Below, in pieces: positions 12,430-32,819 of a stretch of DNA of 62,670 bases. The stretch is from assembly GCA_002396805.1 (NCBI GenBank), contig DGYW01000058.1, positions 118,747-181,416 of the forward strand. Reading direction: 5' to 3'. The position numbers were made by a program, and so were the translations under genes. The stretch is from Firmicutes bacterium UBA4996. GTDB lineage: Bacteria > Bacillota > Limnochordia > Darwinibacteriales > Darwinibacteriaceae. Positions within the stretch are counted from its first letter, which is position 1, and each line of letters starts with the position of its first letter. The notes under the pieces are model-generated. The model was not told the DNA's origin, did no database searches, and saw only the letters and a program-made list of their open reading frames with translations.

Positions 12430-13869
12430 GTGAGGAAAATCTTGCTCCGTTTGGGGCTCGTAGTTGTTCTCGTTTTGGTTCTCATCCTAGCCGCGGCACC
12501 GTATTGGGTAACAGCAGTTGGTGTTCCTCGGCAATTAAAGGTCTTTCCCGGTATGGAATTGGTCTTGAATTTGCAGCCGCCCTTGCGACTATACGATGGT
12601 GAAGGTCTAGAAATCACGGGATTAATCAATACAGAACAACTAGGTACCAGCACTTATCGGGTAAATCTTTTTGGGTGGTTACCCCTAACTGAAGTTGTCG
12701 TTGACGTAGTACCGCTAATTCAGGTTTATCCCGGGGGGCAATCCATTGGTGTTTTGCTCAGTGCTGATGGACTATTGATTAACCAAGTTGGTGGGGTTGT
12801 GGGCATGGACGGTATCGAGCATTTTCCCGCTAAAGAGGCAGGCATCCAACCTGGTGATATTCTAATCTCCATTGAGGGTCATAGTCTGAGGCGTCCAGAA
12901 CAGGTCAGCCAGCTGGTCAATGCTTTAGCCGAGGAGAAGAACATTCTAACAGTGGTGGTGCGTCGTCAAAATCGCACCTTAACGTGTGACGTTAGACCCG
13001 TGAAAACCCGACGCCTAGATGTCCTAGGGAGAAATACCATTGGTTACTACCTTGGTATTTATGTAGAAAATCCAGCGGCAGGCGTAGGGACAATGAGTTT
13101 TTATCATGCGGAAACGGGGCGTTTTGGGGCGCTAGGGCATACCATTACAGATAGCTTAGGTAGACCTATTCGCATTGTTTCCGGAAGCATTGTGGAGGCT
13201 TCTATCGATAGCATTCGGGTGGGCAGTAAGGGTTCACCAGGGGAAAAAGTAGGCTTCTTCCACGGGGAGCAAGATGTCTTAGGAAGTATTGACTCGAATT
13301 CTAATTTTGGTATCTTCGGTCAGTTAAAGAGTTCATTTCAACATCCGGCCTTTACCCAACCGGTTCCGGTGGCCTTTGCGCACCAAGTAAGGGAAGGACC
13401 GGCAGAGATTTATACGGTGCTAAGGGGCAATCGTGTTGAACGTTTCACCGTTGAGATCATTAAAGTGAGTAATCAAGCTAAACCTAGTGACAAAGGAATG
13501 GTTGTTCAGGTAACGGATGAACGTCTTTTGCGGGAGACTGGAGGAATAATTCAGGGCATGTCTGGTAGCCCAATTTTACAGAATGGAATGTTAGTTGGGG
13601 CAATTACGCATGTTTTCGTAAATGATCCCACTCGCGGTTACGGAAGCTTTGCAGAATGGATGGTTTACGAGGCAGGCTTGACCACAGAACTTCCTGCGAA
13701 ACAATCGGTTTCGCAGGAAGGTTTTTTTTTACATATAGAGAAGAACCCTAGTAAAAGCAAAGACAAGGCATATCTTATAATAAGAGATTTAATAGGGAGA
13801 GTGTGGAATGGAGTCAAAGACACTTGTATTAGGAGTAATTGGGTCAGATGTTCACGCCGTTGGAAATAA
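12430..13869 (+). CDS. spoIVB: SpoIVB peptidase (S55); the 3' end as called is suspect
   Basis: N-terminal TM, PDZ ([13 protein letters not shown]), catalytic [20 protein letters not shown]. The last ~49 codons run through a terminator hairpin and T9 tract and overlap glmS. Confidence 0.9.
13690..13730 (+). terminator. intrinsic terminator inside the called 3' end of spoIVB
   Basis: Perfect 13-bp stem CTTCCTGCGAAAC / GTTTCGCAGGAAG (13690-13702 / 13708-13720), 5-nt loop, 1 nt, then T9 (13722-13730). Confidence 0.8.
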
Positions 13870-14218
13870 AATTTTGGAGGTTTCCTTTCAACAAGCCGGG
13901 TTTGACGTGGTTAATTTAGGTGTCTTGGTCTCCCAAAAAGAATTTGTGGAGGCTGCTGTAGAGACAAACGCGGATGCAATCATGGTTTCATCACTGTATG
14001 GCCATGGCGAAATCGATGTCCGTGGACTACGAGAGGCGTTGATTGAGGCTGGTATTGGGGACATTCTGATGTATATCGGTGGCTATCTAGTTGTAGGGAG
14101 CCAGGACTGGGCCGATGTTGAGAACAAGTTTAAACAATTGGGCTTTGATCGGGTCTATCCACCCAGCACTTTACCTGAAGATGTTATTCCCACACTGAAG
14201 GCCGACCTAGGCATATGA
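13808..14218 (+). CDS. glmS: glutamate (methylaspartate) mutase sigma subunit, B12-binding
   Basis: 136 aa. [18 protein letters not shown] (DxHxxG cobalamin ligand motif), near-colinear with my recollection of clostridial MutS/GlmS. Confidence 0.92.
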
Positions 14219-14231
14219 TGGAGGTCTACGG

Positions 14232-15626
14232 ATGTCAGAAATAATTCTGGTTGATATTGGAAGCACCTTTACCAAAGTTACGGCGGTAGACTTGACCGCC
14301 GCACACCTTATCGCCCAAGCAAATGCCCCAACCACGCCGGATGATGTGAGCATTGGCTTACAAAATGCCTTGGACAACTTGGGGATATCTCAACAAGTGA
14401 TGGCCCGAGCTCGTAAGCTTGCTTGTTCGAGTGCGGCGGGCGGGTTAAGGATGGTGGCAATCGGACTTGTCCAAGATTTGACCGCTGAGGCAGCTAAACA
14501 AGCGGCATTAGGTGCTGGGGCCAGGGTTCTGAAGACATATTCTTTTCAGCTCACAGAGTCTGATTTAGAAGAGATTATCCAGCTTCAACCAGATATTATT
14601 CTTTTGGCTGGAGGTACTGATGGTGGTAATACTGCTAACATCTTGCACAATGCTCAGGCCTTAGCGACTTTGCCCCAGGGAATACCTGTAGTTATCGCCG
14701 GAAATCGTTCGGTTGGACCTGAGGTAGCTCGTTGTTTTCCTGAACGTTTTAGTACTTATGTAGCTCCTAATGTGATGCCCCAAATTGGTAAATTAGAGGT
14801 TGAGCCTGCTCGGGAAGTAATTCGGAAAGTCTTCATGGAAAAGATAATTTATGCCAAGGGTTTAGACAAGGCTGGACGTTTAATTGAGGGGATCTTTATG
14901 CCTACTCCCGCGGCTGTTTTGCGGTCTGGCAGGCTTCTGAGTAGCGGTACCGCACTTACCAAGGGGTGGGGAGATCTCCTCATTGTGGATGTGGGTGGTG
15001 CTACCACCGATGTCCATTCTTTAGGGACCGGATCCCCTAGTAAAGCGGGTGTGGTCCAGAGGGGACTGCCAGAACCTTTCGCCAAACGAACTGTAGAGGG
15101 AGATTTGGGCATGAGGGTTAGTGTTTTATCTCTCCTCGATGCGATTAACCCAGCGGTCTTGGCTCGCGACTTGAATTGGAATCAAGAAAGAGTGGAGCAG
15201 AGGGCGAAGAAATTGTCTGCACAACCCGAATTGCTACCACAAAATCCGGAGGAAATTGCCTTTGATCAAACCTTAGGGTACCAGGCAGTAAAACTCGCAG
15301 TGGGCAGGCATGTAGGGAGACTCTCTGAATTATATACTCCGTCGGGGTTAGTTTGGATGCAAGATGGCAAGGATCTCTCATTAGTGAATAGGGTGATTGG
15401 GACCGGTGGAGTTATGGTAAATAGCGGAAACGCCCACTTTATGCTCAAAGGGGCAGAACATCAGCTAGAAGCCCCTTTGGAATTGCGTCCCGAAAAGCCT
15501 CATTATTTCTTGGATGGAAAGTATATTTTAGCACCTATGGGGCTGTTGGCTGAAGATTATCCAGAAGTGGCCCTGAAAATTCTCAAAGATTCATTAAACG
15601 ATCATGAGCTCGCAAGGAGGGACTAG
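14232..15626 (+). CDS. glmL: glutamate mutase accessory/reactivating protein GlmL (MutL)
   Basis: 464 aa. MSEIILVDIGSTFTKVTAVD ASKHA-type N-terminus. Located between the S and E subunits as in Clostridium. Confidence 0.85.
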   Translation: MSEIILVDIGSTFTKVTAVDLTAAHLIAQANAPTTPDDVSIGLQNALDNLGISQQVMARARKLACSSAAGGLRMVAIGLVQDLTAEAAKQAALGAGARVLKTYSFQLTESDLEEIIQLQPDIILLAGGTDGGNTANILHNAQALATLPQGIPVVIAGNRSVGPEVARCFPERFSTYVAPNVMPQIGKLEVEPAREVIRKVFMEKIIYAKGLDKAGRLIEGIFMPTPAAVLRSGRLLSSGTALTKGWGDLLIVDVGGATTDVHSLGTGSPSKAGVVQRGLPEPFAKRTVEGDLGMRVSVLSLLDAINPAVLARDLNWNQERVEQRAKKLSAQPELLPQNPEEIAFDQTLGYQAVKLAVGRHVGRLSELYTPSGLVWMQDGKDLSLVNRVIGTGGVMVNSGNAHFMLKGAEHQLEAPLELRPEKPHYFLDGKYILAPMGLLAEDYPEVALKILKDSLNDHELARRD

Positions 15627-15629
15627 TAG

Positions 15630-17087
15630 TTGGTGGCGCAAATTACACATGGTAAGTTGGATTGGTACGATCTTAAACAAGAACGGGAAGAAGTATTGGC
15701 TGGTTGGGTTACTGGTCAAGAGGTAGACTTGGAGGATGCGGTTCGCTTTCACCTGGCTCTACCCTCCCATCTCAATTTTGGTGTACGTATGGCCCAGGCC
15801 AAAGAAGAAGGAAAGACTCTCGCTCAGCCCCGGGCAGGGGTGGCTGATTTAACTAGCCATATTGGTTTACTAAAGTTCTTGCAGGATGAAGGTGGCGCAG
15901 ATCTTTTACCGACCACGATCGATTCTTACACCAGACAGAATCGTTATGAAGAAGCGGAAAGAGGTTTGGAAGAAAGTGTCCGTGAAGGTCGTTCACTCTT
16001 GAATGGCTTTCCCGCCGTAAATCACGGTGTGGCCAATTGTCGCCGCCTTGTAGAAAGCTTGTCTGTACCAGTGCAAGTGCGCCATGGCACCCCAGATGCT
16101 CGTTTACTGGCAGAAATAACCTTAGCAGCTGGTTTTACCGCTTATGAGGGAGGCGGTATTTCTTATAACATTCCCTACGCTAAGCGCGTGCCCTTAGAAA
16201 AAAGTATTCGCGATTGGCAATACGTGGATCGACTCACAGGCTTTTATGAGGAGCAAGGCGTTACCATTAACCGTGAACCTTTTGGACCTCTAACTGGAAC
16301 CCTAGTGGCACCTAGTGTCTCCCATAGTGTGGCCATCATCGAAGCCATTCTAGCGGCTAAGCAAGGGGTGAAGAGTCTGACTTTGGGTTACGGACAATGC
16401 GGAAATCTCATGCAGGACGTGGCCGCACTTCAGACATTAACCATACTTGCAGAAGAATACTTAGAAGCAGAAGGTTTAACAGATGTGGAAATCACCACCG
16501 TATTTCACCAGTGGATGGGAGGATTTCCCAATGATGAGGCTCGGGCCTTTGGAGTGATCTCCCTTGGGGGCGCTGCGGCAGCTCTGGGCAAGGCTACTAA
16601 AGTGATCGTAAAAACCCCACATGAAGCCTTAGGCGTTCCTACTAAGGAGGCAAACGCTCAAGGTATTCGCGCCACGAAGCAAGTCCTAAGTATGCTCCAG
16701 GATCAAATGTATCCAGAAAACGATAAACTGGCTTTCGAGCGGGAGATCATTATTCAAGAGACTCGTGAGATTCTCAACAAGACCCGTGAATTGGGTGAAG
16801 GTGATTGGGCAGTAGGTACTGTGCGCTCCTTCGCCGCCGGAGTTATTGACATACCATTTGCGCCTAGCTCGTTTAACGCGGGAAGAACCATGCCTGCTCG
16901 GGATAATGACGGTGCAATACGCTTTTTATCTTGGGGTAATTTGCCCTTCAGCAAGGACATTCAGGATTTCCATCGCTCGAAACTGGCAGAGCGGGGCAAA
17001 GCGGAGCAACGAACCCCCAGTTTCCAAATGGTTATTGACGATGTTTATGCCATTGGTCAAGGTAAGTTAATAGGAAGACCTCGTTAG
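15630..17087 (+). CDS. glmE: glutamate (methylaspartate) mutase epsilon subunit
   Basis: 485 aa. AQPRAGV...[18 protein letters not shown]...[12 protein letters not shown]...FHQWMGGFP...VIVKTPHEA, colinear with my recollection of clostridial MutE. Confidence 0.95.
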
Positions 17088-17104
17088 AGAACTCTCGCTA
17101 GGAG

Positions 17105-18469
17105 ATGATTGAATTGGATGAACTAAGAATTTTGTCCCCCACGGCGATTCTAGGCTATGGTTTTCCCTTAGCCTCTTTTCAGGCCGGATTAGAGCGTAGT
17201 CCACATGTTATTGCGGTTGATGCAGGTTCAACAGACCCAGGTCCTTATTATCTAGGTTCTGGCCAGTCGTTTACCCAACGTTCTGCAGTCAAGCGTGACT
17301 TACGTCACTTAATTGAAGCGGCTCTCACGCGCAATATTCCGCTAGTCATTGGGTCTGCTGGTGGTTCTGGTGCAAAGCCCCATGTGGAGTGGAATTTAGC
17401 CATTGTAGAAGAGGTGTTGGCAGAACTCGGCAAGACTGCCCGATTAGCGGTTATTTATAGTGACATAGATCGTCAATTGGTCGCGGAAAAGCTCAAGAAA
17501 GACCAGGTCCAGCCCCTGGGTCCTATTGCGCAATTGACAGAGGAAGAAATCTTTGCCAGTACGAACCTAGTAGCTCAAATGGGTCTAGAGCCCATCATGG
17601 AGGCACTCCAAGAAGGCGCAGAGATTATTCTGGCGGGTAGGGCCTATGATCCCACTGCTTTTGCGGCGTTGCCAGTCCTTAAGGGCTATGATCTTGCCCT
17701 AGCTTTGCATCTTGGGAAAATACTGGAGTGTGCAGCTATTGCCGCTAATCCAGGCAGCGGTAGTGATTGCTTAATGGGTTACCTTTATAAGGATTCCTTT
17801 GTGTTAGAAGCTCTCAATCCACAGCGGGAGTGCACGAGGATCTCGATTGCCGCCCATACTCTTTATGAAAAGAGTAATCCTTACTTTTTGCCTGGTCCAG
17901 GAGGACGTTTAGATCTAACTAAGACTGTGTTCGAACAGTTGCCAGGAGGCAAGGTTAGGGTTTCGGGAACTACCTTTACACCTACAGATGGTTATTTTGT
18001 CAAACTGGAAGGGGCACGCCTCATCGGATATCGGACTATCAGTATTGCTGGTGTGCGCGATCCTATCATGATTGGACAGATAGACGAGGTAATCGCAGGT
18101 GTTAAGGAACGGGTCGAGGATAATTTTCAAGAACTCCAAGACTATCAGTTACATGTGCACTGTTACGGTAAGAACGGCGTGATGGGGGCTTTAGAACCTC
18201 ATCCTGAACCGGGACATGAGTTGGGGTTAGTAATTGAGGCAGTGGCAAGCACTCAGGAAGTAGCGGATACTATTTGCAGCTTTGCCCGCTCCACACTCTT
18301 ACACTATGGTTATCCAGGCAGGAAATCTACGGCAGGTAACTTAGCTTTTCCCTACTCACCTTCTGACGTTTCAGCGGGAGCAGTTTACAAGTTTAATGTG
18401 CACCACTTGATGCAAATAGAAGATCCGAAGAGCCTATTTCCAATTAAGATGGGGAGGAGTGGTCTATGA
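17105..18469 (+). CDS. uncharacterised protein, DUF1446 (AtuA N-terminal domain)-like
   Basis: 454 aa. Assignment rests mainly on the overlapping downstream DUF4387-like partner (the AtuA domain order split into two genes). No direct catalytic motif recognised. Confidence 0.5.
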   Translation: MIELDELRILSPTAILGYGFPLASFQAGLERSPHVIAVDAGSTDPGPYYLGSGQSFTQRSAVKRDLRHLIEAALTRNIPLVIGSAGGSGAKPHVEWNLAIVEEVLAELGKTARLAVIYSDIDRQLVAEKLKKDQVQPLGPIAQLTEEEIFASTNLVAQMGLEPIMEALQEGAEIILAGRAYDPTAFAALPVLKGYDLALALHLGKILECAAIAANPGSGSDCLMGYLYKDSFVLEALNPQRECTRISIAAHTLYEKSNPYFLPGPGGRLDLTKTVFEQLPGGKVRVSGTTFTPTDGYFVKLEGARLIGYRTISIAGVRDPIMIGQIDEVIAGVKERVEDNFQELQDYQLHVHCYGKNGVMGALEPHPEPGHELGLVIEAVASTQEVADTICSFARSTLLHYGYPGRKSTAGNLAFPYSPSDVSAGAVYKFNVHHLMQIEDPKSLFPIKMGRSGL

Positions 18470-18768
18470 GATACGTCAAGGATGTTGCTTTGGTGATTCG
18501 AAGTAAAAACGCGGGCCCTTATGAACTAACATTTGACCTCATGTTTCCTGATGAAGAAAGCTACGATGAAGTGCGACAAAGTATTACCAAAGCGAAGATT
18601 GCCCAGTTATACCAGATTGAGGAGAGTGAGGTGCTCTCTCTAGTGCACTTTGCTCCGGCCCATGCCATCAAGATTACTATTGTGCGCCCTCGGGCTTCAG
18701 GTGACCTTGGGGAAACGGATGTTTATGGTGCACAGCAACACGCACCCCTTTTTGACCTAACTTATTAA
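18466..18768 (+). CDS. uncharacterised small protein, DUF4387 (AtuA C-terminal ferredoxin-like domain)-like
   Basis: 100 aa. IRSKNAGPYELTFDLMF and DVYGAQQH motifs as I recall them for this family. 4-nt overlap with the upstream gene. Confidence 0.55.
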   Translation: MRYVKDVALVIRSKNAGPYELTFDLMFPDEESYDEVRQSITKAKIAQLYQIEESEVLSLVHFAPAHAIKITIVRPRASGDLGETDVYGAQQHAPLFDLTY

Positions 18769-18782
18769 AGGAGTGGTGGAAA

Positions 18783-20030
18783 TTGAAGATTAAGGATGTC
18801 GTTTTATCCAAAGGGTTAACGGGGTTTTATTTCGACGATCAAAAGGCTATTCGACAAGGGAATTTTCGCGAAAATGGCCTTGCTTATGATGGTGATCCGG
18901 TGACACCAGGATTCACCAGCATTCGCCAAGCTGGCGAAAGCGTTTCTATTCAATTAGTCTTAGAGAGCGGGCAAGTAGCCTATGGTGACTGTGCCGCGGT
19001 GCAATACTCTGGTGCTGGTGGCCGAGATCCCTTGTTTTTAGCTGATGATTATATTCCCCTGATCGAGAAATACGTCGTACCCGTAGTAAAGGGAAAAGCA
19101 TTAACCTCTTTTAAGCAGTTAGCCAAAGAAGTAGATCAGATTAAAGATAGTAATGGTAAACTAATGCATACTGCCATTCGTTATGGAGTGACTCAGGCTC
19201 TGCTTGATGCGGTAGCCCGAAGCAAAGGGGTAACTATGGCAGAAGTAATCGTTGATGAATATGGTTTGGAGCTAACTCCCGAACCAGTCCTAATCTTTTG
19301 CCAAACCGGAGATGATCGCAAGATCAATGCGGACCGCATGATCATTAAGCAAGCAGATATGCTGCCCCACGGTCTGTTTAACAACGTTAATAAACTTGGT
19401 AAGAATGGAGAGCATCTTAAGGAATACTTAGCTTGGTTGAAGGAGCGGGTCCAGGAACTAAAGACATGTCCTGACTATCTACCTGATTTTCAAGTTGACG
19501 TTTACGGTACCATCGGTGAGGCTTTCAATAACGATATTGCTAAGGTAGGCGAATATGCAAGAGAGCTAGCGGAGATAGTTGCACCACATAAGTTGCTCAT
19601 TGAAGGACCCATCGAGTGCTCCACTCGGGATGAGCAAATTAAGGCCATGGCGGATTTGAGGACCTATGTGGATGAGCGTAACATTCCGGTCAAATTCGTA
19701 GTAGATGAATGGTGTAATACTCTTGATGATATCAAGGCCTTTACCGATGCTAAGGCTGGACATATGATTCAGATTAAGGCTCCGGATCTGGGGGGCATCA
19801 ATAATTCTGTAGAAGCGGTAATCTACTGTCACAAAAACGGTATGCTACCGTATTTGGGTGGAACCTGTAATGAAACAGAGCGTTCTGCTCAGATCACTGT
19901 TCAAGTCGCAGTGGCAACCCAGCCGAGACAGATTCTTTCTAAGCCAGGTATGGGTGTGGACGAGGGATTGTCTATATGCACTAACGAAATGAATCGTCTG
20001 GTGGCTCTTTTGAAGAGCAGAGCAAGGTAG
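18783..20030 (+). CDS. mal: 3-methylaspartate ammonia-lyase
   Basis: 415 aa. GLTGFYFDDQ...DCAAVQYSGAGGRDPLF...HMIQIKAPDLGG...GGTCNETERSA, colinear with my recollection of clostridial beta-methylaspartase. Confidence 0.95.
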   Translation: MKIKDVVLSKGLTGFYFDDQKAIRQGNFRENGLAYDGDPVTPGFTSIRQAGESVSIQLVLESGQVAYGDCAAVQYSGAGGRDPLFLADDYIPLIEKYVVPVVKGKALTSFKQLAKEVDQIKDSNGKLMHTAIRYGVTQALLDAVARSKGVTMAEVIVDEYGLELTPEPVLIFCQTGDDRKINADRMIIKQADMLPHGLFNNVNKLGKNGEHLKEYLAWLKERVQELKTCPDYLPDFQVDVYGTIGEAFNNDIAKVGEYARELAEIVAPHKLLIEGPIECSTRDEQIKAMADLRTYVDERNIPVKFVVDEWCNTLDDIKAFTDAKAGHMIQIKAPDLGGINNSVEAVIYCHKNGMLPYLGGTCNETERSAQITVQVAVATQPRQILSKPGMGVDEGLSICTNEMNRLVALLKSRAR

Positions 20031-20039
20031 GGGATAGAA

Positions 20040-20882
20040 GTGAGAGTAATTAAGTATGACGACATAGTGGCCCGGACTAAAGCCCTGTGTTTGGACGCTA
20101 ATCGGCATCTTCCTGCCGATGTCTTTGGAGCCCTGAAGCGCGCTCAAGAGCAAGAGGTCTCTCCCTTAGGCAAAAATGTTTTAGATACCATTTTGGAAAA
20201 CGCGGAGATTGCTCGCACCAAATCCATGGCGCTTTGTCAGGACACTGGTATGGTTGTTGTTTTCGCCGAGGTCGGTCAAGACGCACGGATTGAAGGTGGA
20301 TTACTCACTGATGCAATTGACGAGGGTGTGCGTCAGGCTTATGATGAAGGGTATCTACGCAAAAGCGTCGTTGGTGACCCCTTAGAGCGAGTAAATACAG
20401 GAGATAACACTCCCGCGGTTGTGCACGTCTCTTTGGTAGCAGGCGATCAACTGCGCCTGACTGTGGCACCAAAAGGTTTTGGTAGTGAAAACATGTCTGC
20501 CCTCCGTATGCTTAAACCTGCGGAAGGCGTACAAGGTGTGAAGGACTTCATTGTGGAGACAGTTACCAAGGCTGGCGGTAATCCCTGTCCACCCATTATT
20601 ATTGGAGTTGGGATTGGAGGTACCTTTGAAAAGGCGGCCTTGATGGCCAAGCGATCTGTCTTGCGGGAAATTGGATCCAAGCATCCAAAACCACACCTGG
20701 CTCAGCTTGAAGAAGAGCTCTTAGAACTGGTCAACAAAACTGGTGTAGGACCGCAGGGCTTTGGTGGTACGCAAACAGCCTTAGCCGTCTTTGTGGATAC
20801 TTATCCAACCCATATAGCGGGATTGCCAGTGGCCGTAAACATTAACTGCCATGTGGCAAGACATGTGGAGGCGATTCTCTAA
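20040..20882 (+). CDS. Fe-S type hydro-lyase alpha subunit (class I fumarase / tartrate dehydratase alpha type; candidate mesaconase alpha)
   Basis: 280 aa. ALCQDTGMVVVF, VAPKGFGSENMS, and IIIGVGIGGTFE motifs of the FumA N-terminal domain. Confidence 0.85.
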   Translation: MRVIKYDDIVARTKALCLDANRHLPADVFGALKRAQEQEVSPLGKNVLDTILENAEIARTKSMALCQDTGMVVVFAEVGQDARIEGGLLTDAIDEGVRQAYDEGYLRKSVVGDPLERVNTGDNTPAVVHVSLVAGDQLRLTVAPKGFGSENMSALRMLKPAEGVQGVKDFIVETVTKAGGNPCPPIIIGVGIGGTFEKAALMAKRSVLREIGSKHPKPHLAQLEEELLELVNKTGVGPQGFGGTQTALAVFVDTYPTHIAGLPVAVNINCHVARHVEAIL

Positions 20883-21748
20883 TGCACTATACTACTCTAG
20901 TTCAGGCGGTTTACTATGCGCCTAGGGGCCGCAAAAGGTTAATGCACTTGGGCATGCTAATTTCCCAGCGATATTTGGGTGCAGAAAACCGCCTGATTGG
21001 GGTGGTTGGTGACTCAGGGGCAGGCAAATCCCTATTGATTCGAGGGATGTTTCCTGGTCTTGTCTTAACAAATGACGATGATGGGGTGAACAACCGACCT
21101 CTTCCGGTCTTGGATGATGCTGGGAACGACTTTTTTCGGACCCACAGCTATCACTTAGATGTGCGTTTTGAAATGGCCTTTACTCCTCTGTGGGAGTTAG
21201 CTGATGCGGTTCGAAAGGCGGTCTCCAGTGGACATCGGGTGATTGTAGAGCACTTCGATTTGCTGTATCCTTTACTCAACCTTAACGCTGAAGTGTTAAT
21301 TGGGATTGGGGAAGAAGTTGTTGTTACTGTTCCCACTCTATTTGGTCCCTTTCCAGCTGAAGTGGCTCAGCAGGCCTTCGATTCCTTAGTTTATCGCAAA
21401 ATGGCCCATAGTGCAGAAGACCTTACTTCTGTAGTTTTCGAACAAATGGGGTTTGAGGCACCAACTATGCACAGCGATGTACGGAGAGGTTTTGTTGTGG
21501 AGTTTTCCCAGAAGCCAGAAGTTGATTTGGCCGAAGTGGAGCGCAGGGTACTGGAATATATTGCCCAGGATTTGCCGATTGGATTTTACAAAGACAATGC
21601 CATCTTAATCGGTGACGAGGTTTTGGAATGTACTGGGCCGCGGATTCATATGTCTTCTACGGGTAAAATTGAACGATTTCGTTTGGATAAAAGTTTTCAG
21701 TATTCGCCGATCACCAAGACTTTCTTGCTGGCCGGACGAGTTGGGTAA
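20882..21748 (+). CDS. uncharacterised P-loop protein
   Basis: 288 aa. Walker A-like IGVVGDSGAGKSLLIRG resembles the HPr kinase-type P-loop. Start overlaps the upstream stop (TAATG). Confidence 0.45.
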   Translation: MHYTTLVQAVYYAPRGRKRLMHLGMLISQRYLGAENRLIGVVGDSGAGKSLLIRGMFPGLVLTNDDDGVNNRPLPVLDDAGNDFFRTHSYHLDVRFEMAFTPLWELADAVRKAVSSGHRVIVEHFDLLYPLLNLNAEVLIGIGEEVVVTVPTLFGPFPAEVAQQAFDSLVYRKMAHSAEDLTSVVFEQMGFEAPTMHSDVRRGFVVEFSQKPEVDLAEVERRVLEYIAQDLPIGFYKDNAILIGDEVLECTGPRIHMSSTGKIERFRLDKSFQYSPITKTFLLAGRVG

Positions 21749-21761
21749 TGGGGTGAAGTCC

Positions 21762-22523
21762 ATGTCGGGGGCGATTAGGATTTTGCAGGCGGACGCGGAC
21801 AGCGTTTTCAGGCAAGATGTGTCTAGATATTTTGAAAGTTTGGAAGACTTTGTCTATATAGAAGGACTAGAGGCTGCAGACAGGATTTTAGATTCTATTG
21901 CAGAGCACCAGCCCAATATTGTTCTCTTGGATTTGGATTTACCACCACAGGGTGGTTTCCCAGTTCTCGGGGAAATTCGAAAACGTTGGAGTAACGATAC
22001 TTTACCTATAATAATGCTCGCCAGATCACATAAGGCAGAAGCTCATCTAACACAAGCAGTTGCTTTGGGTGCCAGCTATTTTATTCTCCGCCCAGTGGAT
22101 TTGGTGGTGCTGGAAAACCGTGTTCGGCAGCTCCTCAATACCACTCCCCTTGTTATTGACAATGGTTTATCACTAAAGCAAGTGCAGGAGATCTGTGTGC
22201 GCTATTTTGATGCCATGGGGATACCTCCCCACTACAAGGGTTATCGCTATTTGATCGAAGGGATTTGGTTAGCTTCCCTGCATCCAACTTGGTTAAGTTC
22301 TATGACGAAAAAACTCTACCCTGCCATTGGTCAGCGCTTTGGTACTAGTGGATCTCAGGTGGAGCGAGCCATGCGTTATGCCTTGGATATGACATGGGAA
22401 AAGGGCGTTCTAGAAGAATTGTATCGTTTGTTTCCCTACGAGGTGCGGGAAAACAAAGGCAAACCTACTAACTCCGCTTTTATCGCTAAGATGGCAGACT
22501 TGGTGGCTTTAGAAGCGGGGTAG
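21762..22523 (+). CDS. spo0A: sporulation master regulator Spo0A (receiver domain non-canonical)
   Basis: C-terminal Spo0A DNA-binding domain (HYKGYRYLIEGI..., SQVERAMRYALD, KPTNSAFIAKMAD). ATG 21762 follows GGGGTGA. The ORF-track start at 21612 overlaps the previous gene. Confidence 0.9.
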   Translation: MSGAIRILQADADSVFRQDVSRYFESLEDFVYIEGLEAADRILDSIAEHQPNIVLLDLDLPPQGGFPVLGEIRKRWSNDTLPIIMLARSHKAEAHLTQAVALGASYFILRPVDLVVLENRVRQLLNTTPLVIDNGLSLKQVQEICVRYFDAMGIPPHYKGYRYLIEGIWLASLHPTWLSSMTKKLYPAIGQRFGTSGSQVERAMRYALDMTWEKGVLEELYRLFPYEVRENKGKPTNSAFIAKMADLVALEAG

Positions 22524-29576: not shown

Positions 29577-30833
29577 ATGTACCAAAAAACTGTGCTACCC
29601 AATGGAATTAGGATTGTTAGCGAATATTTGCCTTACCTGCGCTCGGTGACCTTAGGGGCTTGGTTTGAGGTTGGAAGTCGTCATGAACAGCCGCAAGAGT
29701 GGGGTCTTTCTCATTTTATCGAACACATGATGTTCAAGGGGACTGACAAGTATTCGGCGCGTCAGATTGCTGAAGTGATGGACAAACATGGTGGTTATCT
29801 GAATGCTTTTACCGGAAAAGAACACACTTGCTATTATTTCAAGGTATTGGATGAGCATTTCGCCCTAGCTTCGGACGTCTTGCAGCATATGCTTCTCCAC
29901 TCCTTGTTTTTACCAGAAGAGATAACCAAGGAGCGTAATGTTGTCCTAGAAGAGCTTAACATGTATGAAGACTCCCCAGAGGAGTTAGTCCATGACTTGT
30001 TCGCCAACGTACTCTGGCCTCAGCATCCTTTAGGCAACAGCATTATCGGATCGGCATCCACTATTAGTGGCTTTGATCGAAAGATGATCTTTCGTTTTCT
30101 GGAGGAGCACTATACCACAGATCGTTTAGTTATTGTCAGTGCCGGCAATATTCCCCACGAGCGAGTGGTGGAAGAGTTTGCTGACGCTCTTGGTCATTTA
30201 CCAAGGGGGAACAAACCCCAAATCGAGCAGCCCGCTAGTGAGGGGGGGAACTGCTTGTTTCACGATAAGGATACAGAACAAGTTCATCTTTGTTTAGGGG
30301 GAGCCTCTCTTTCTAGGACAGATCAGGCCAAGTACGCAATTCATTTATTAGATACCATTATAGGTGGAGGAGTTAGTTCCTTGCTTTTCCAAGAACTGAG
30401 GGAAGAGAGGGGATTGGTGTATAGCACTTACTCGTTTAACTCACTTTATCAGGATGCTGGTGCGTATGGAGTCTATGCTGGATTTAGTCCCCAACATTGG
30501 AATCAGGTGTGGGAGGTAATTTCTACACAGTTTTCCGCTTTACCCCAGCTGCTTACGGAAGATATGTTAGCTAGGGCCAAGGGACAGTTAACGGGTAGTA
30601 TTCTGCTATCCTTGGAAAGCACTAGTAACAGGATGACTAGATTAGCCAAGGGTGAGCTGGATGAAGGCAGAATTATTACTGTTGAGGAAGTCTTGGCTAA
30701 TATTGAAGCGGTGCAGCACGAGGAGTTGTTAAGGGTGGCCACTACAGTGTACGATCCCCAATCTTGGAGTTGGGTGGGACTAGGGCCTAAAAATCTAGTA
30801 GAGGAGGACATTTTGTGTCGCAAGATATGCTAA
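29577..30833 (+). CDS. M16 family (insulinase-like) zinc peptidase, YmxG/MlpA-like
   Basis: HFIEHMMFKG inverted zinc motif. ATG 29577 follows GGAGG. The ORF-track start at 29442 overlaps the divergent gene. Confidence 0.88.
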   Translation: MYQKTVLPNGIRIVSEYLPYLRSVTLGAWFEVGSRHEQPQEWGLSHFIEHMMFKGTDKYSARQIAEVMDKHGGYLNAFTGKEHTCYYFKVLDEHFALASDVLQHMLLHSLFLPEEITKERNVVLEELNMYEDSPEELVHDLFANVLWPQHPLGNSIIGSASTISGFDRKMIFRFLEEHYTTDRLVIVSAGNIPHERVVEEFADALGHLPRGNKPQIEQPASEGGNCLFHDKDTEQVHLCLGGASLSRTDQAKYAIHLLDTIIGGGVSSLLFQELREERGLVYSTYSFNSLYQDAGAYGVYAGFSPQHWNQVWEVISTQFSALPQLLTEDMLARAKGQLTGSILLSLESTSNRMTRLAKGELDEGRIITVEEVLANIEAVQHEELLRVATTVYDPQSWSWVGLGPKNLVEEDILCRKIC

Positions 30834-31180
30834 GAGATATTTTCCGGTTGCAGGCCGAGTTTGACCAAGCTGTAATTGAGCATCGTGGACTAGAGTTTAG
30901 TCCAGAGGTTTGGATTCAAAAAGAGGTCTTAGCGATTATTTCTGAACTCAGTGAGATTCTTGATGAGGTGAATTTTAAGTGGTGGAAGGATCCCCAAGAG
31001 ATTAACGGGGAAGCACTTAAAGGCGAAATTGTTGATGTATTACATTTCTTCGTGAGTATGTGCCTAAAGGCTGGGATTGGTCCCGACGAGCTTTACGAGG
31101 CCTATGTGGAAAAGAATCGAGAGAATTTCGCTCGCCAACAGGGCAAGACGGATCGGGAAGGATACGCTTGGAAGAAATAG
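30815..31180 (+). CDS. all-alpha NTP pyrophosphohydrolase, dimeric dUTPase (dUTPase_2)-like
   Basis: 121 aa. ELSEILDEVNFKWWK and DVLHFFVS patterns. GTG start 8 nt after GAGGAGG. Confidence 0.55.
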   Translation: MSQDMLRDIFRLQAEFDQAVIEHRGLEFSPEVWIQKEVLAIISELSEILDEVNFKWWKDPQEINGEALKGEIVDVLHFFVSMCLKAGIGPDELYEAYVEKNRENFARQQGKTDREGYAWKK

Positions 31181-31241
31181 ACTATTATGATATAATCGAA
31201 TTACTCCGCGCCCAGGGAGATGCCCAAAGGAGAGTGTTCTT

Positions 31242-32480
31242 TTGAGCATGCGCGGAGTTTTTTTTGTACTGTTTTTTCTTCTGCTTTGTATTTCGGCAGG
31301 AGAGGCTTATGACGTTCGAGGCGGGATCCAAGGTTCGCTAGGTAGCGAAGGAGTGGAGCATGAACTAAGCTTGGACGCTAAGCAGCAGTGGTCGGGCTTA
31401 AAAATAGACGCGGGGTGGAAGGGGCAGTGGCTTAGTTCGTCTGCTGAAACAAAGCACTATTTGAACTGGCAGATGTGTTTTGATGCCAAACACCTACAGC
31501 TGATTTTTAGTGGGAACAAACCCCATTATACTTCAGGGGACCTTTTTCGTTTGGTCCACAAAGACAACTTTGGCCCGGATAGTAGCTCCTTCTTAATAGT
31601 AAGCGAAGGGTTGACGTTAGGATTGCTGAGGAGGATTCCCTTAAGGAGTTTAGATCAGGTTGATGTTTGGTTCTATGAAAGCGCATTGGATTTAGGACCC
31701 TTTAGTTTAAAGGGGATGCAGCTGCAATATTCTGGTTTCAAGGAGGCTGGCGCAGCCCAAGTTTTGCATGGGGAAGGCAGTTGGCGCGACTGGAAAGTTT
31801 TAGTTGGTCGCGGCTGGCAGACCAATTCAAGTGGGGTGGAGAGCAGAGCACGGTTAGCAGAAATCAGAAACAACGGAGATTTTTGGGAAGTGCTCTTAAC
31901 CTACCAGTCAATCGATCCTCAGTTCTCGAGCCTTTTAGCCAAGACCAACAAACACACTCCTGACCGGCGGGGTTGGCGGGTGGAGGCAGTATACAATTCT
32001 GCTACTTGGCGACTTAAGTTCAATCGTCGCCAACATAGTAACATCGAAGGGAGTAAAAAATACAATCAGCTGTCTTGGCAGTTGAGTTCTCATGACAAGA
32101 AGTCTTCGATACAGTTGCGTCTAGAGCCTACGCCTGCTTTTATTCTGCGTGCTGTTGGGGAGGGAGTGGTAGCACAGTTCGATGCTTGGAATGGAGCCAT
32201 GCGGGTCGATTGGCACCGGGACCAACTACGCTATGGGTTTCGTTGGGACGTGGAGCGCGGCATTATCCGTTTTGAGCTCGGTCACCAGTTACCCTTCGAG
32301 TGGAGGATCATTGCCAAATTCGATGTGGCTCAACGGCGTCAGCATTACTCTCTGCTAGCGAGTTATGCCACCAAGACAGCTGAACTCAAATTGGAGATTG
32401 GCAGTTATGATCGGGGCAATTTGCTCGCCGGCTTTAACAATCCACCGAGTTACCGCATATCATGGGGATGGAAGTTCTAG
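31242..32480 (+). CDS. secreted protein of unknown function with beta-barrel/OMP-like features
   Basis: 412 aa. Signal peptide (VFFVLFFLLLCISAGEA), many alternating amphipathic strands, and C-terminus YRISWGWKF. Confidence 0.5.
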   Translation: MSMRGVFFVLFFLLLCISAGEAYDVRGGIQGSLGSEGVEHELSLDAKQQWSGLKIDAGWKGQWLSSSAETKHYLNWQMCFDAKHLQLIFSGNKPHYTSGDLFRLVHKDNFGPDSSSFLIVSEGLTLGLLRRIPLRSLDQVDVWFYESALDLGPFSLKGMQLQYSGFKEAGAAQVLHGEGSWRDWKVLVGRGWQTNSSGVESRARLAEIRNNGDFWEVLLTYQSIDPQFSSLLAKTNKHTPDRRGWRVEAVYNSATWRLKFNRRQHSNIEGSKKYNQLSWQLSSHDKKSSIQLRLEPTPAFILRAVGEGVVAQFDAWNGAMRVDWHRDQLRYGFRWDVERGIIRFELGHQLPFEWRIIAKFDVAQRRQHYSLLASYATKTAELKLEIGSYDRGNLLAGFNNPPSYRISWGWKF

Positions 32481-32519
32481 TAGAATTTCGCACTTCATAA
32501 GTTATGCCGAGGTGATGGT

Positions 32520-32819
32520 ATGAGGTATTCGGAGTTGTCGGGCAAAGAGATCGTGTGCATTGATGAAGGCATCAGGCTCGGAGTAGTGGATCATACCGAT
32601 CTAATCATCAACTTGCGGACAGGCGAAGTGGATTCTATTGTGATTCCCTATGGTAATCGCTGGTTTCGACCTAGATTAATTGTGATTCCTTGGAAGGGTG
32701 TTAAGAAGATCGGCAGAGACTTAATAATCGTTGATTTGACTACTGCTCAGGATTATTCTGAGGTAATGCGGAAGCTTGAAGATAAACCCCGATGGAATAA
32801 GCCCCCTTTTATTGGGTAA
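32520..32819 (+). CDS. ylmC: YlmC/YmxH family sporulation protein (PRC barrel)
   Basis: 99 aa. MRYSELSGKEIVCIDEGIRLGVV...DLIIN..TGEVDSIVIP is characteristic. Confidence 0.85.
   Translation: MRYSELSGKEIVCIDEGIRLGVVDHTDLIINLRTGEVDSIVIPYGNRWFRPRLIVIPWKGVKKIGRDLIIVDLTTAQDYSEVMRKLEDKPRWNKPPFIG

Follow-up and report, generated by a model that had tools for sequence, protein, structure and literature searches.

A stretch of 62,670 nucleotides from Firmicutes bacterium UBA4996 (class Limnochordia), here called the window, encodes a predicted outer-membrane β-barrel. It represents a real, unnamed family within a familiar class of proteins, whose predicted build is uncommon (26 strands within some 390 residues, and no plug) and whose leader is uncatalogued. 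The open reading frame, its predicted fold, synteny and distribution, the promoter motif, the covarying leader hairpin and the diderm nature of the host were all obtained by computation. The family adds an unnamed, class-restricted outer-membrane barrel to the least-studied class of diderm Firmicutes, and the leader is an uncatalogued cis-regulatory element that overlaps the signal-peptide sequence. Together they bear on the outer-membrane content of diderm Firmicutes, in an order in which lpxC was not detected (41 genomes), while nothing in monoderm or forespore biology is overturned by the barrel.

The gene order is M16 peptidase - dUTPase_2 - barrel ORF - PRC-barrel gene - YflT-like - dapB - dpaA/B. 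This order and the Pfam matches agree with the original prediction, which had placed the barrel between M16 peptidase/dUTPase genes and a ylmC/ymxH-type gene. The flanking genes and regulatory signals are as follows.

30815..31180, + strand: dUTPase_2 family gene (PF08761), whose 3' end contains the -35 box of the barrel promoter
31168..31196, + strand: sigma-A/sigma-70-type promoter with -35 hexamer, 17-nt spacer and extended -10 (TGn-TATAAT); 10/12 consensus matches, TG present
31203..31265, + strand: conserved terminator-like leader hairpin (31203-31258) and 8-U run, from folding energy, covariation and a covariance model
32496..32503, + strand: CATA-type -10 box before ymxH, after the barrel stop codon, from CATA recurrence across loci
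32520..32819, + strand: ymxH/ylmC-type PRC-barrel gene (PF05239; TIGR02888 over cut-off)

The PRC-barrel gene is one of two ylmC/ymxH paralogues in the genome, and we take it to be the ymxH type because of its position at the locus, compared with the Bacillus gene order. It lies directly downstream of the barrel in 30/30 loci compared, and in most distant loci. Within the family the barrel is 28-56% identical, evolving fast while its loops are kept, compared with 64-94% for ymxH. Two further observations concern the upstream genes. In families f6-f8 (L059-L069) a different dUTPase, presumably of the trimeric type by its motif, replaces the dUTPase_2 gene in a non-orthologous swap. Within the M16 gene, a 34-nt stretch (window 30265-30298) coincides with identical loose contig ends on both sides in three RNA runs of one study; it is either a repeat common to another locus or a strain insertion.

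The barrel gene itself was originally described as encoding 412 aa with a signal-peptide-like N-terminus and a last strand ending in Phe, and this description stands.

31242-32480, + strand: barrel gene ORF, TTG start, 412 aa
31242..31307, + strand: Sec signal peptide of the signal peptidase I type, residues 1-22, from sequence pattern, model helix and Ala22 conservation
31311..32477, + strand: predicted 26-stranded outer-membrane β-barrel, residues 24-412, without plug or periplasmic domain, from AlphaFold2 and fold searches
31515..31583, + strand: first long conserved loop, following strand 5 (residues 92-114, with D100 and R103); 23 residues in 56/56 aligned homologues
31914..31964, + strand: second long conserved loop, following strand 13 (residues 225-241, with F228, and running on to R242 and G244); length 15-17 residues across the 56 homologues
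32400..32450, + strand: third long conserved loop, following strand 25 (residues 387-403, with G387, D390 and G392); 17 residues in 56/56 homologues
32451..32477, + strand: last strand with BAM-type β-signal and terminal Phe, from sequence and the AlphaFold2 model

The N-terminus has a basic residue, a hydrophobic stretch and a G-E-A cleavage site (a pattern judged by eye), and residues 3-15 form a helix in the AlphaFold2 model. Together with Ala22, which is present in 75% of the 56 aligned homologues, the pattern supports a cleavable Sec signal peptide. At the other end F, W, W, I and Y occupy positions 1, 3, 5, 7 and 9 counted from the C-terminus, exactly the β-signal originally proposed; the last residue is F in 37 homologues, W in 11 and another residue in 8 (F or W in 48/56). 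Among the 2116 genome ORFs with 150 aa or more, 8 have the strict form of this pattern, most of them in hydrophobic helix tails, and thus the motif alone is only moderately specific and needs support from the fold. Signal-like N-termini and β-signal-like ends are also combined in ORFs elsewhere in the genome (C38:64095-65405, C38:49250-49858, C50:39076-40371, C8:2452-3117 and C14:182247-182957). The first two have no Pfam match, and C38:64095 lies two genes upstream of a polysaccharide-export gene.

That support comes from structure prediction. AlphaFold2 modeled the query (47-sequence alignment) with 26 strands and no plug domain (pLDDT 93.1, pTM 0.78), and a homologue only 12% identical to it (56 sequences) with 26 barrel strands, leaving aside a 3-residue strand within a loop (pLDDT 91.4, pTM 0.84); the two models are not fully independent, since their alignments have many rows in common. 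The original call of a barrel is thus upheld, and a soluble non-barrel fold was not seen. The number of amphipathic strands is even, and most of them alternate hydrophobic and polar faces. Connections average 7.7 residues after odd strands versus 2.6 after even ones, so that long loops and short turns lie on opposite sides. Long outer loops and short periplasmic turns are the usual pattern of outer-membrane barrels. The three long loops, where D390 and G392 are each 98% conserved, account together with R343 and K359 (strands 22-23) for most of the conserved residues across the 56 homologues, and the net charges of the polar faces add up to about +2.6 on average. Aligned structurally to closed barrels of 18 and 24 strands, the model matches from about residue 20 to 412, and this near full-length match suggests that the modeled barrel is closed.

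By sequence, the family has no match over cut-off in Pfam, NCBIfam or the PDB (profile A2, 0 matches at E 1), and a plasmid sequence search likewise returned nothing over cut-off. The barrel scores 18.2 bits with Porin_4 (PF13609), against a curated cut-off of 27, and 2/56 members match this model weakly. The original prediction had allowed that this might be an ordinary annotated porin of a known diderm lineage. The lineage part is right, as Limnochordia are a known diderm class; the porin part is not, as the family is unannotated and without a match over cut-off. There is no paralogue of the barrel among the 3002 ORFs of the genome, and a scan of named genomes gave no confirmed relative. Kinship with the OmpM-like protein of the same host was considered and rejected (hhalign probability 0.3%). 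Two homologue clusters hold members labeled ‘hypothetical protein [Limnochordia bacterium]’, and we found no description of the barrel family or of its leader in the openly available papers searched.

Fold searches with Foldseek and VIA-align returned only outer-membrane and mitochondrial barrels (Occ/OprD, AlgE, ushers, TonB receptors, MtrB, LptD), the best Z being 16.8 (rmsd 7.9) and identities ranging over 4-12%; among the matches listed there are generic barrels only and no specific family. OprD/Occ and AlgE, which are 18-strand, loop-constricted and often cationic monomeric pores, have the top Z-scores (about 16-17), but they differ from the barrel in strand number, and the rmsd of 7-8 marks the match as one of generic barrel geometry. 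The best Foldseek matches are the PapC/FimD ushers (E from about 1e-8 down to 3e-9, TM-scores reaching 0.52), yet the barrel lacks a plug and periplasmic N- or C-terminal domains, has no pilus genes nearby and is only 7-10% identical to them. MtrB/PioB is, like the barrel, large and plug-less, with 26 strands (Z 15.3); in contrast to it, the barrel has no adjacent multihaem cytochrome gene, is much shorter, shares 8-9% identity and has no Pfam match.

We propose that the protein is a low-copy, loop-gated, vegetative outer-membrane channel of Limnochordia for large solutes, a reading to which we give about an even chance. Transcription would start at the sigma-A promoter; the leader hairpin would then hide the ribosome-binding site and the weak UUG start, and the U-run that follows it would probably end many transcripts. 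Under this proposal, the hidden start and the probable early termination would keep the number of barrel copies small. Sec would export the protein, and after cleavage behind Ala22 BamA would recognize its β-signal and insert it as a 26-stranded barrel; its three outer loops of fixed length would fold back into an otherwise empty lumen, held by conserved Arg, Lys and Asp residues (R343, K359, D390; D100, R103; R242). From this we infer a gated, mildly cationic pore in the outer membrane for solutes too large for ordinary porins, for example oligosaccharides or peptides. The position of the gene among sporulation genes would be inherited gene order. Speaking against a channel, three short loops are small relative to the lumen of a 26-strand barrel, which would fit a separate plug partner.

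The main rival to the channel, ranking ahead of a sporulation role, a small RNA and a monoderm barrel in that order, takes up this last point. The protein could be a translocon or sheath like LptD or MtrB, housing a separately encoded lipoprotein or periplasmic partner and exporting lipid, polymer or surface protein; we regard this as possible but doubtful. In its favor, the homologue model aligns with MtrB over 346 residues (rmsd 4.8) and with LptD over 369 (rmsd 5.1), and the gene is single-copy behind a tightly throttled leader. LptD (Z 11.6-13.2) is itself an outer-membrane barrel of 26 strands, according to the Acetonema longum study (PMC13018214). By language-model features, the nearest named clusters are those of DUF6029 (PF19494; 0.94-0.95), a family of similar length for which polysaccharide export has been suggested (PMC9603273), but 0/56 barrel homologues match PF19494 at E 0.05 and the shared-feature counts of 164-172 are borderline.

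Against this rival, the barrel has no jellyroll, POTRA or plug domain. Where LptD has an N-terminal jellyroll, strand 1 of this barrel of about 390 residues directly follows the signal peptide, and none of the 56 members has an LptD Pfam match. The gene lies outside the lpt cluster, in which the genome has its own, separate lptD-like gene. No exported partner is encoded alongside, the neighbors are lost independently of the barrel, and the barrel is dispensable in at least four genomes of the same order and present both with and without lpxC. SonA and the other uncharacterized barrels of A. longum are similarly unannotated; they, too, come from a Firmicute that is diderm and forms spores, and their presence does not follow sporulation. 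SonA differs in having 10 strands and POTRA domains, and Table 1 of that study has no barrel above 22 strands, with two undetermined (PMC13018214). A bolder variant, which we consider fairly unlikely, would make the minimal plug-less 26-strand barrel a gated translocon of a type new to diderm Firmicutes, with an unlinked partner or for envelope-polymer export, and its leader a new switch in which a protein or ligand bound to the conserved bulge opens the start-burying terminator.

The distribution of the gene bears on its relation to sporulation. A single-protein search found a match in 26/26 other genomes of the family, and the barrel profile matched 69/95 class genomes, with one copy in each except where the gene is split or interrupted by a contig end. 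Divergent copies at the same locus in five more (G077, G078, G080, G082, G083) bring the count to 74/95. Of the 21 genomes with no match, 17 had their locus read, and the barrel is absent from it in each (four in genus g15, 5/6 in f6, 2/2 in f7, 4/4 in f8 and 2/4 in f13). A two-gene tree, weak in its deep branches, places the gene-less groups apart, which suggests at least two or three losses of the gene. Its absence from otherwise intact loci in several lineages is as expected of an accessory channel. Three copies (G054, G058, G014) are broken, through decay or assembly error. Phylum samples of 301 and 401 genomes yielded only class members and, outside the class, one weak, non-syntenic match, a 626-aa exported protein (L081:628-2508, genome G309) that resembles the barrel near the second conserved loop (E 2.4e-4) and may mark a wider barrel superfamily.

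A role in sporulation or germination, for example as a mother-cell outer-membrane pore or an early barrel in the remodeling of the outer spore membrane, is unlikely on this distribution. Four genomes from two related families (G029, G030, G031 and G068, at 98, 95, 79 and 86% completeness) lack spoIVA, both ylmC/ymxH genes, spoIIIAA and a full-length spoIIE, and nevertheless keep the promoter, the leader and the barrel. G029 and G031 have the barrel complete, and in G030 and G068 contig ends truncate it; dapB comes immediately after it in G029, G031 and G068. Conversely, spoIVA is present in 20 of the 21 class genomes in which the barrel was not found. Genome G019 likewise has no spoIVA match, but it retains two ylmC/ymxH genes and was left out of the non-sporulating set. 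The barrel is therefore neither restricted to genomes that have core sporulation genes nor consistently retained in them, and its conserved upstream motif is of the sigma-A type rather than that of a sporulation sigma factor, although a second promoter is conceivable. For a sporulation role speaks the neighborhood: ymxH adjoins the barrel wherever both exist, no terminator was found between the two at this locus, and several families have ymxH immediately next to the stop codon of the barrel, without a CATA box in the upstream region tested, so that co-transcription with a sporulation gene is possible. On the other hand, ymxH has its own CATA box whether or not the barrel is present (CATA 15-60 nt upstream of ymxH in 53/83 loci, including loci without the barrel, versus 229/1741 background ORFs), a box that we take to resemble the mother-cell sporulation promoter consensus. 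In A. longum, two outer-membrane proteins appear germination-specific, a precedent for such a role, but mature spores are without outer-membrane proteins (PMC13018214).

The extended -10 of the promoter recurs 61-69 nt before the Arg codon in 25/27 homologous loci, which as kin are not independent, compared with 89/1731 genome ORFs. Downstream of it, the hairpin (-27 kcal/mol, z -3.8) encloses the Shine-Dalgarno site (31226-31232) and the UUG start (31242-31244), and its 5' arm pairs with the first codons, a pairing that explains why these codons of the signal peptide are so oddly conserved. Across 30 sequences 94.6% of cells are paired and 6/17 pairs have changed on both sides. None of 500 shuffles reached as high a pairing, a test inflated by relatedness, and slid controls gave 24-60%. 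Six or seven U occur within 8 nt after the hairpin in 30/30 sequences; the run lies over Phe codons within the signal-peptide sequence, and some distant members have a weak run or none. A comparable hairpin and U-run over the start occurs in only 2/1705 genome ORFs. A covariance model found the leader in 36/37 barrel-bearing genomes of the order, missing G039, and in 0/4 that lost the gene; 30 of the 36 matches were in the training set and 6 are new. Distant families have no match to this model, yet they carry the promoter and hairpins that differ in sequence but likewise bury the start, some with a U-run and others without; the promoters of family f9 escaped the strict pattern search and were read by eye.

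Rfam 15 has no match to the leader (best 19.4 bits against a gathering score of 67, E 0.66), and a pattern search for further copies gave 6 matches versus 3 in the control, near chance. RNAalifold predicts a short alternative helix inside the leader bulge, which would make a two-state switch possible. Both the bulge and the ribosome-binding site contain an ANGGA-like motif, which we take to be the consensus of a CsrA site, and the genome has csrA; control of the leader by CsrA was considered on this basis. Two csrA genes score over cut-off, at G000:C38:98523-98678 and C12:2733-2879.

The same architecture could mean that promoter and hairpin serve chiefly to produce a free small RNA ~65 nt long, with the barrel a read-through by-product. 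A strong promoter just upstream of a stable hairpin with a U-run, and the well-conserved sequence of the bulge, would fit such an RNA. However, the hairpin, itself single-copy, always encloses the ribosome-binding site and start of the barrel, is missing in 4/4 genomes of the order that lost the barrel, and keeps its architecture in distant families despite a different sequence, all of which makes this origin very unlikely.

The host was described originally as either a diderm spore-former or a monoderm encoding a barrel possibly targeted to the forespore, and the first alternative is the right one. Its genome (G000, 93% complete) was checked for bamA, omp85 and lpx genes, and carries bamA with POTRA domains. 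The same contig holds OmpH-like (skp-like), lptF/G, lptD-like, lptC, lptA-like, ABC ATPase, lpxB-like, SLH-domain OmpM-like and flgH/flgI (flagellar L/P ring) genes, and Omp85 occurs in 93/95 class genomes; lpxC was not found in G000. The sporulation genes are spo0A, spoIVA, spoIIE and spoIIIAA, of which the last two have strong scores that fall below the curated cut-offs. An outer membrane has been seen by electron microscopy in cultured Limnochordia (PMC11456536). With this record, the outer-membrane and sporulation genes identify a diderm spore-former, and what had seemed surprising in the original prediction is gone. A monoderm-encoded barrel targeted to the double membrane of the forespore, for which the sporulation-gene neighborhood alone speaks, along with the missing lpxC, is already refuted at the genome level by these genes and by Omp85 across the class, is further disfavored by the retention of the barrel after sporulation-gene loss and by the sigma-A-type promoter, and has a probability close to nil.

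Several observations on the host stand apart from the barrel. The gene lpxC was not found in the 41 genomes of the order, nor in 4 of family f12, and the region G000:C38:36000-72000 (L033, L034) keeps lptF/G, lptD-like, lptC, lptA-like and lpxB-like genes; the outer membrane of this order is possibly one without canonical lipid A. Taib et al. 2020 may already describe this. Two spo0A-like genes are present, one in the window (21612-22523, below the TIGR02875 cut-off) and one at G000:C1:115747-116484 (above it), and G029 and G030 also have two. Finally, window positions 13808-20882 contain a glutamate-fermentation cluster, with B12-binding and MutE glutamate mutase subunits, a MutL-like protein, methylaspartate ammonia-lyase and a fumarase-like enzyme.
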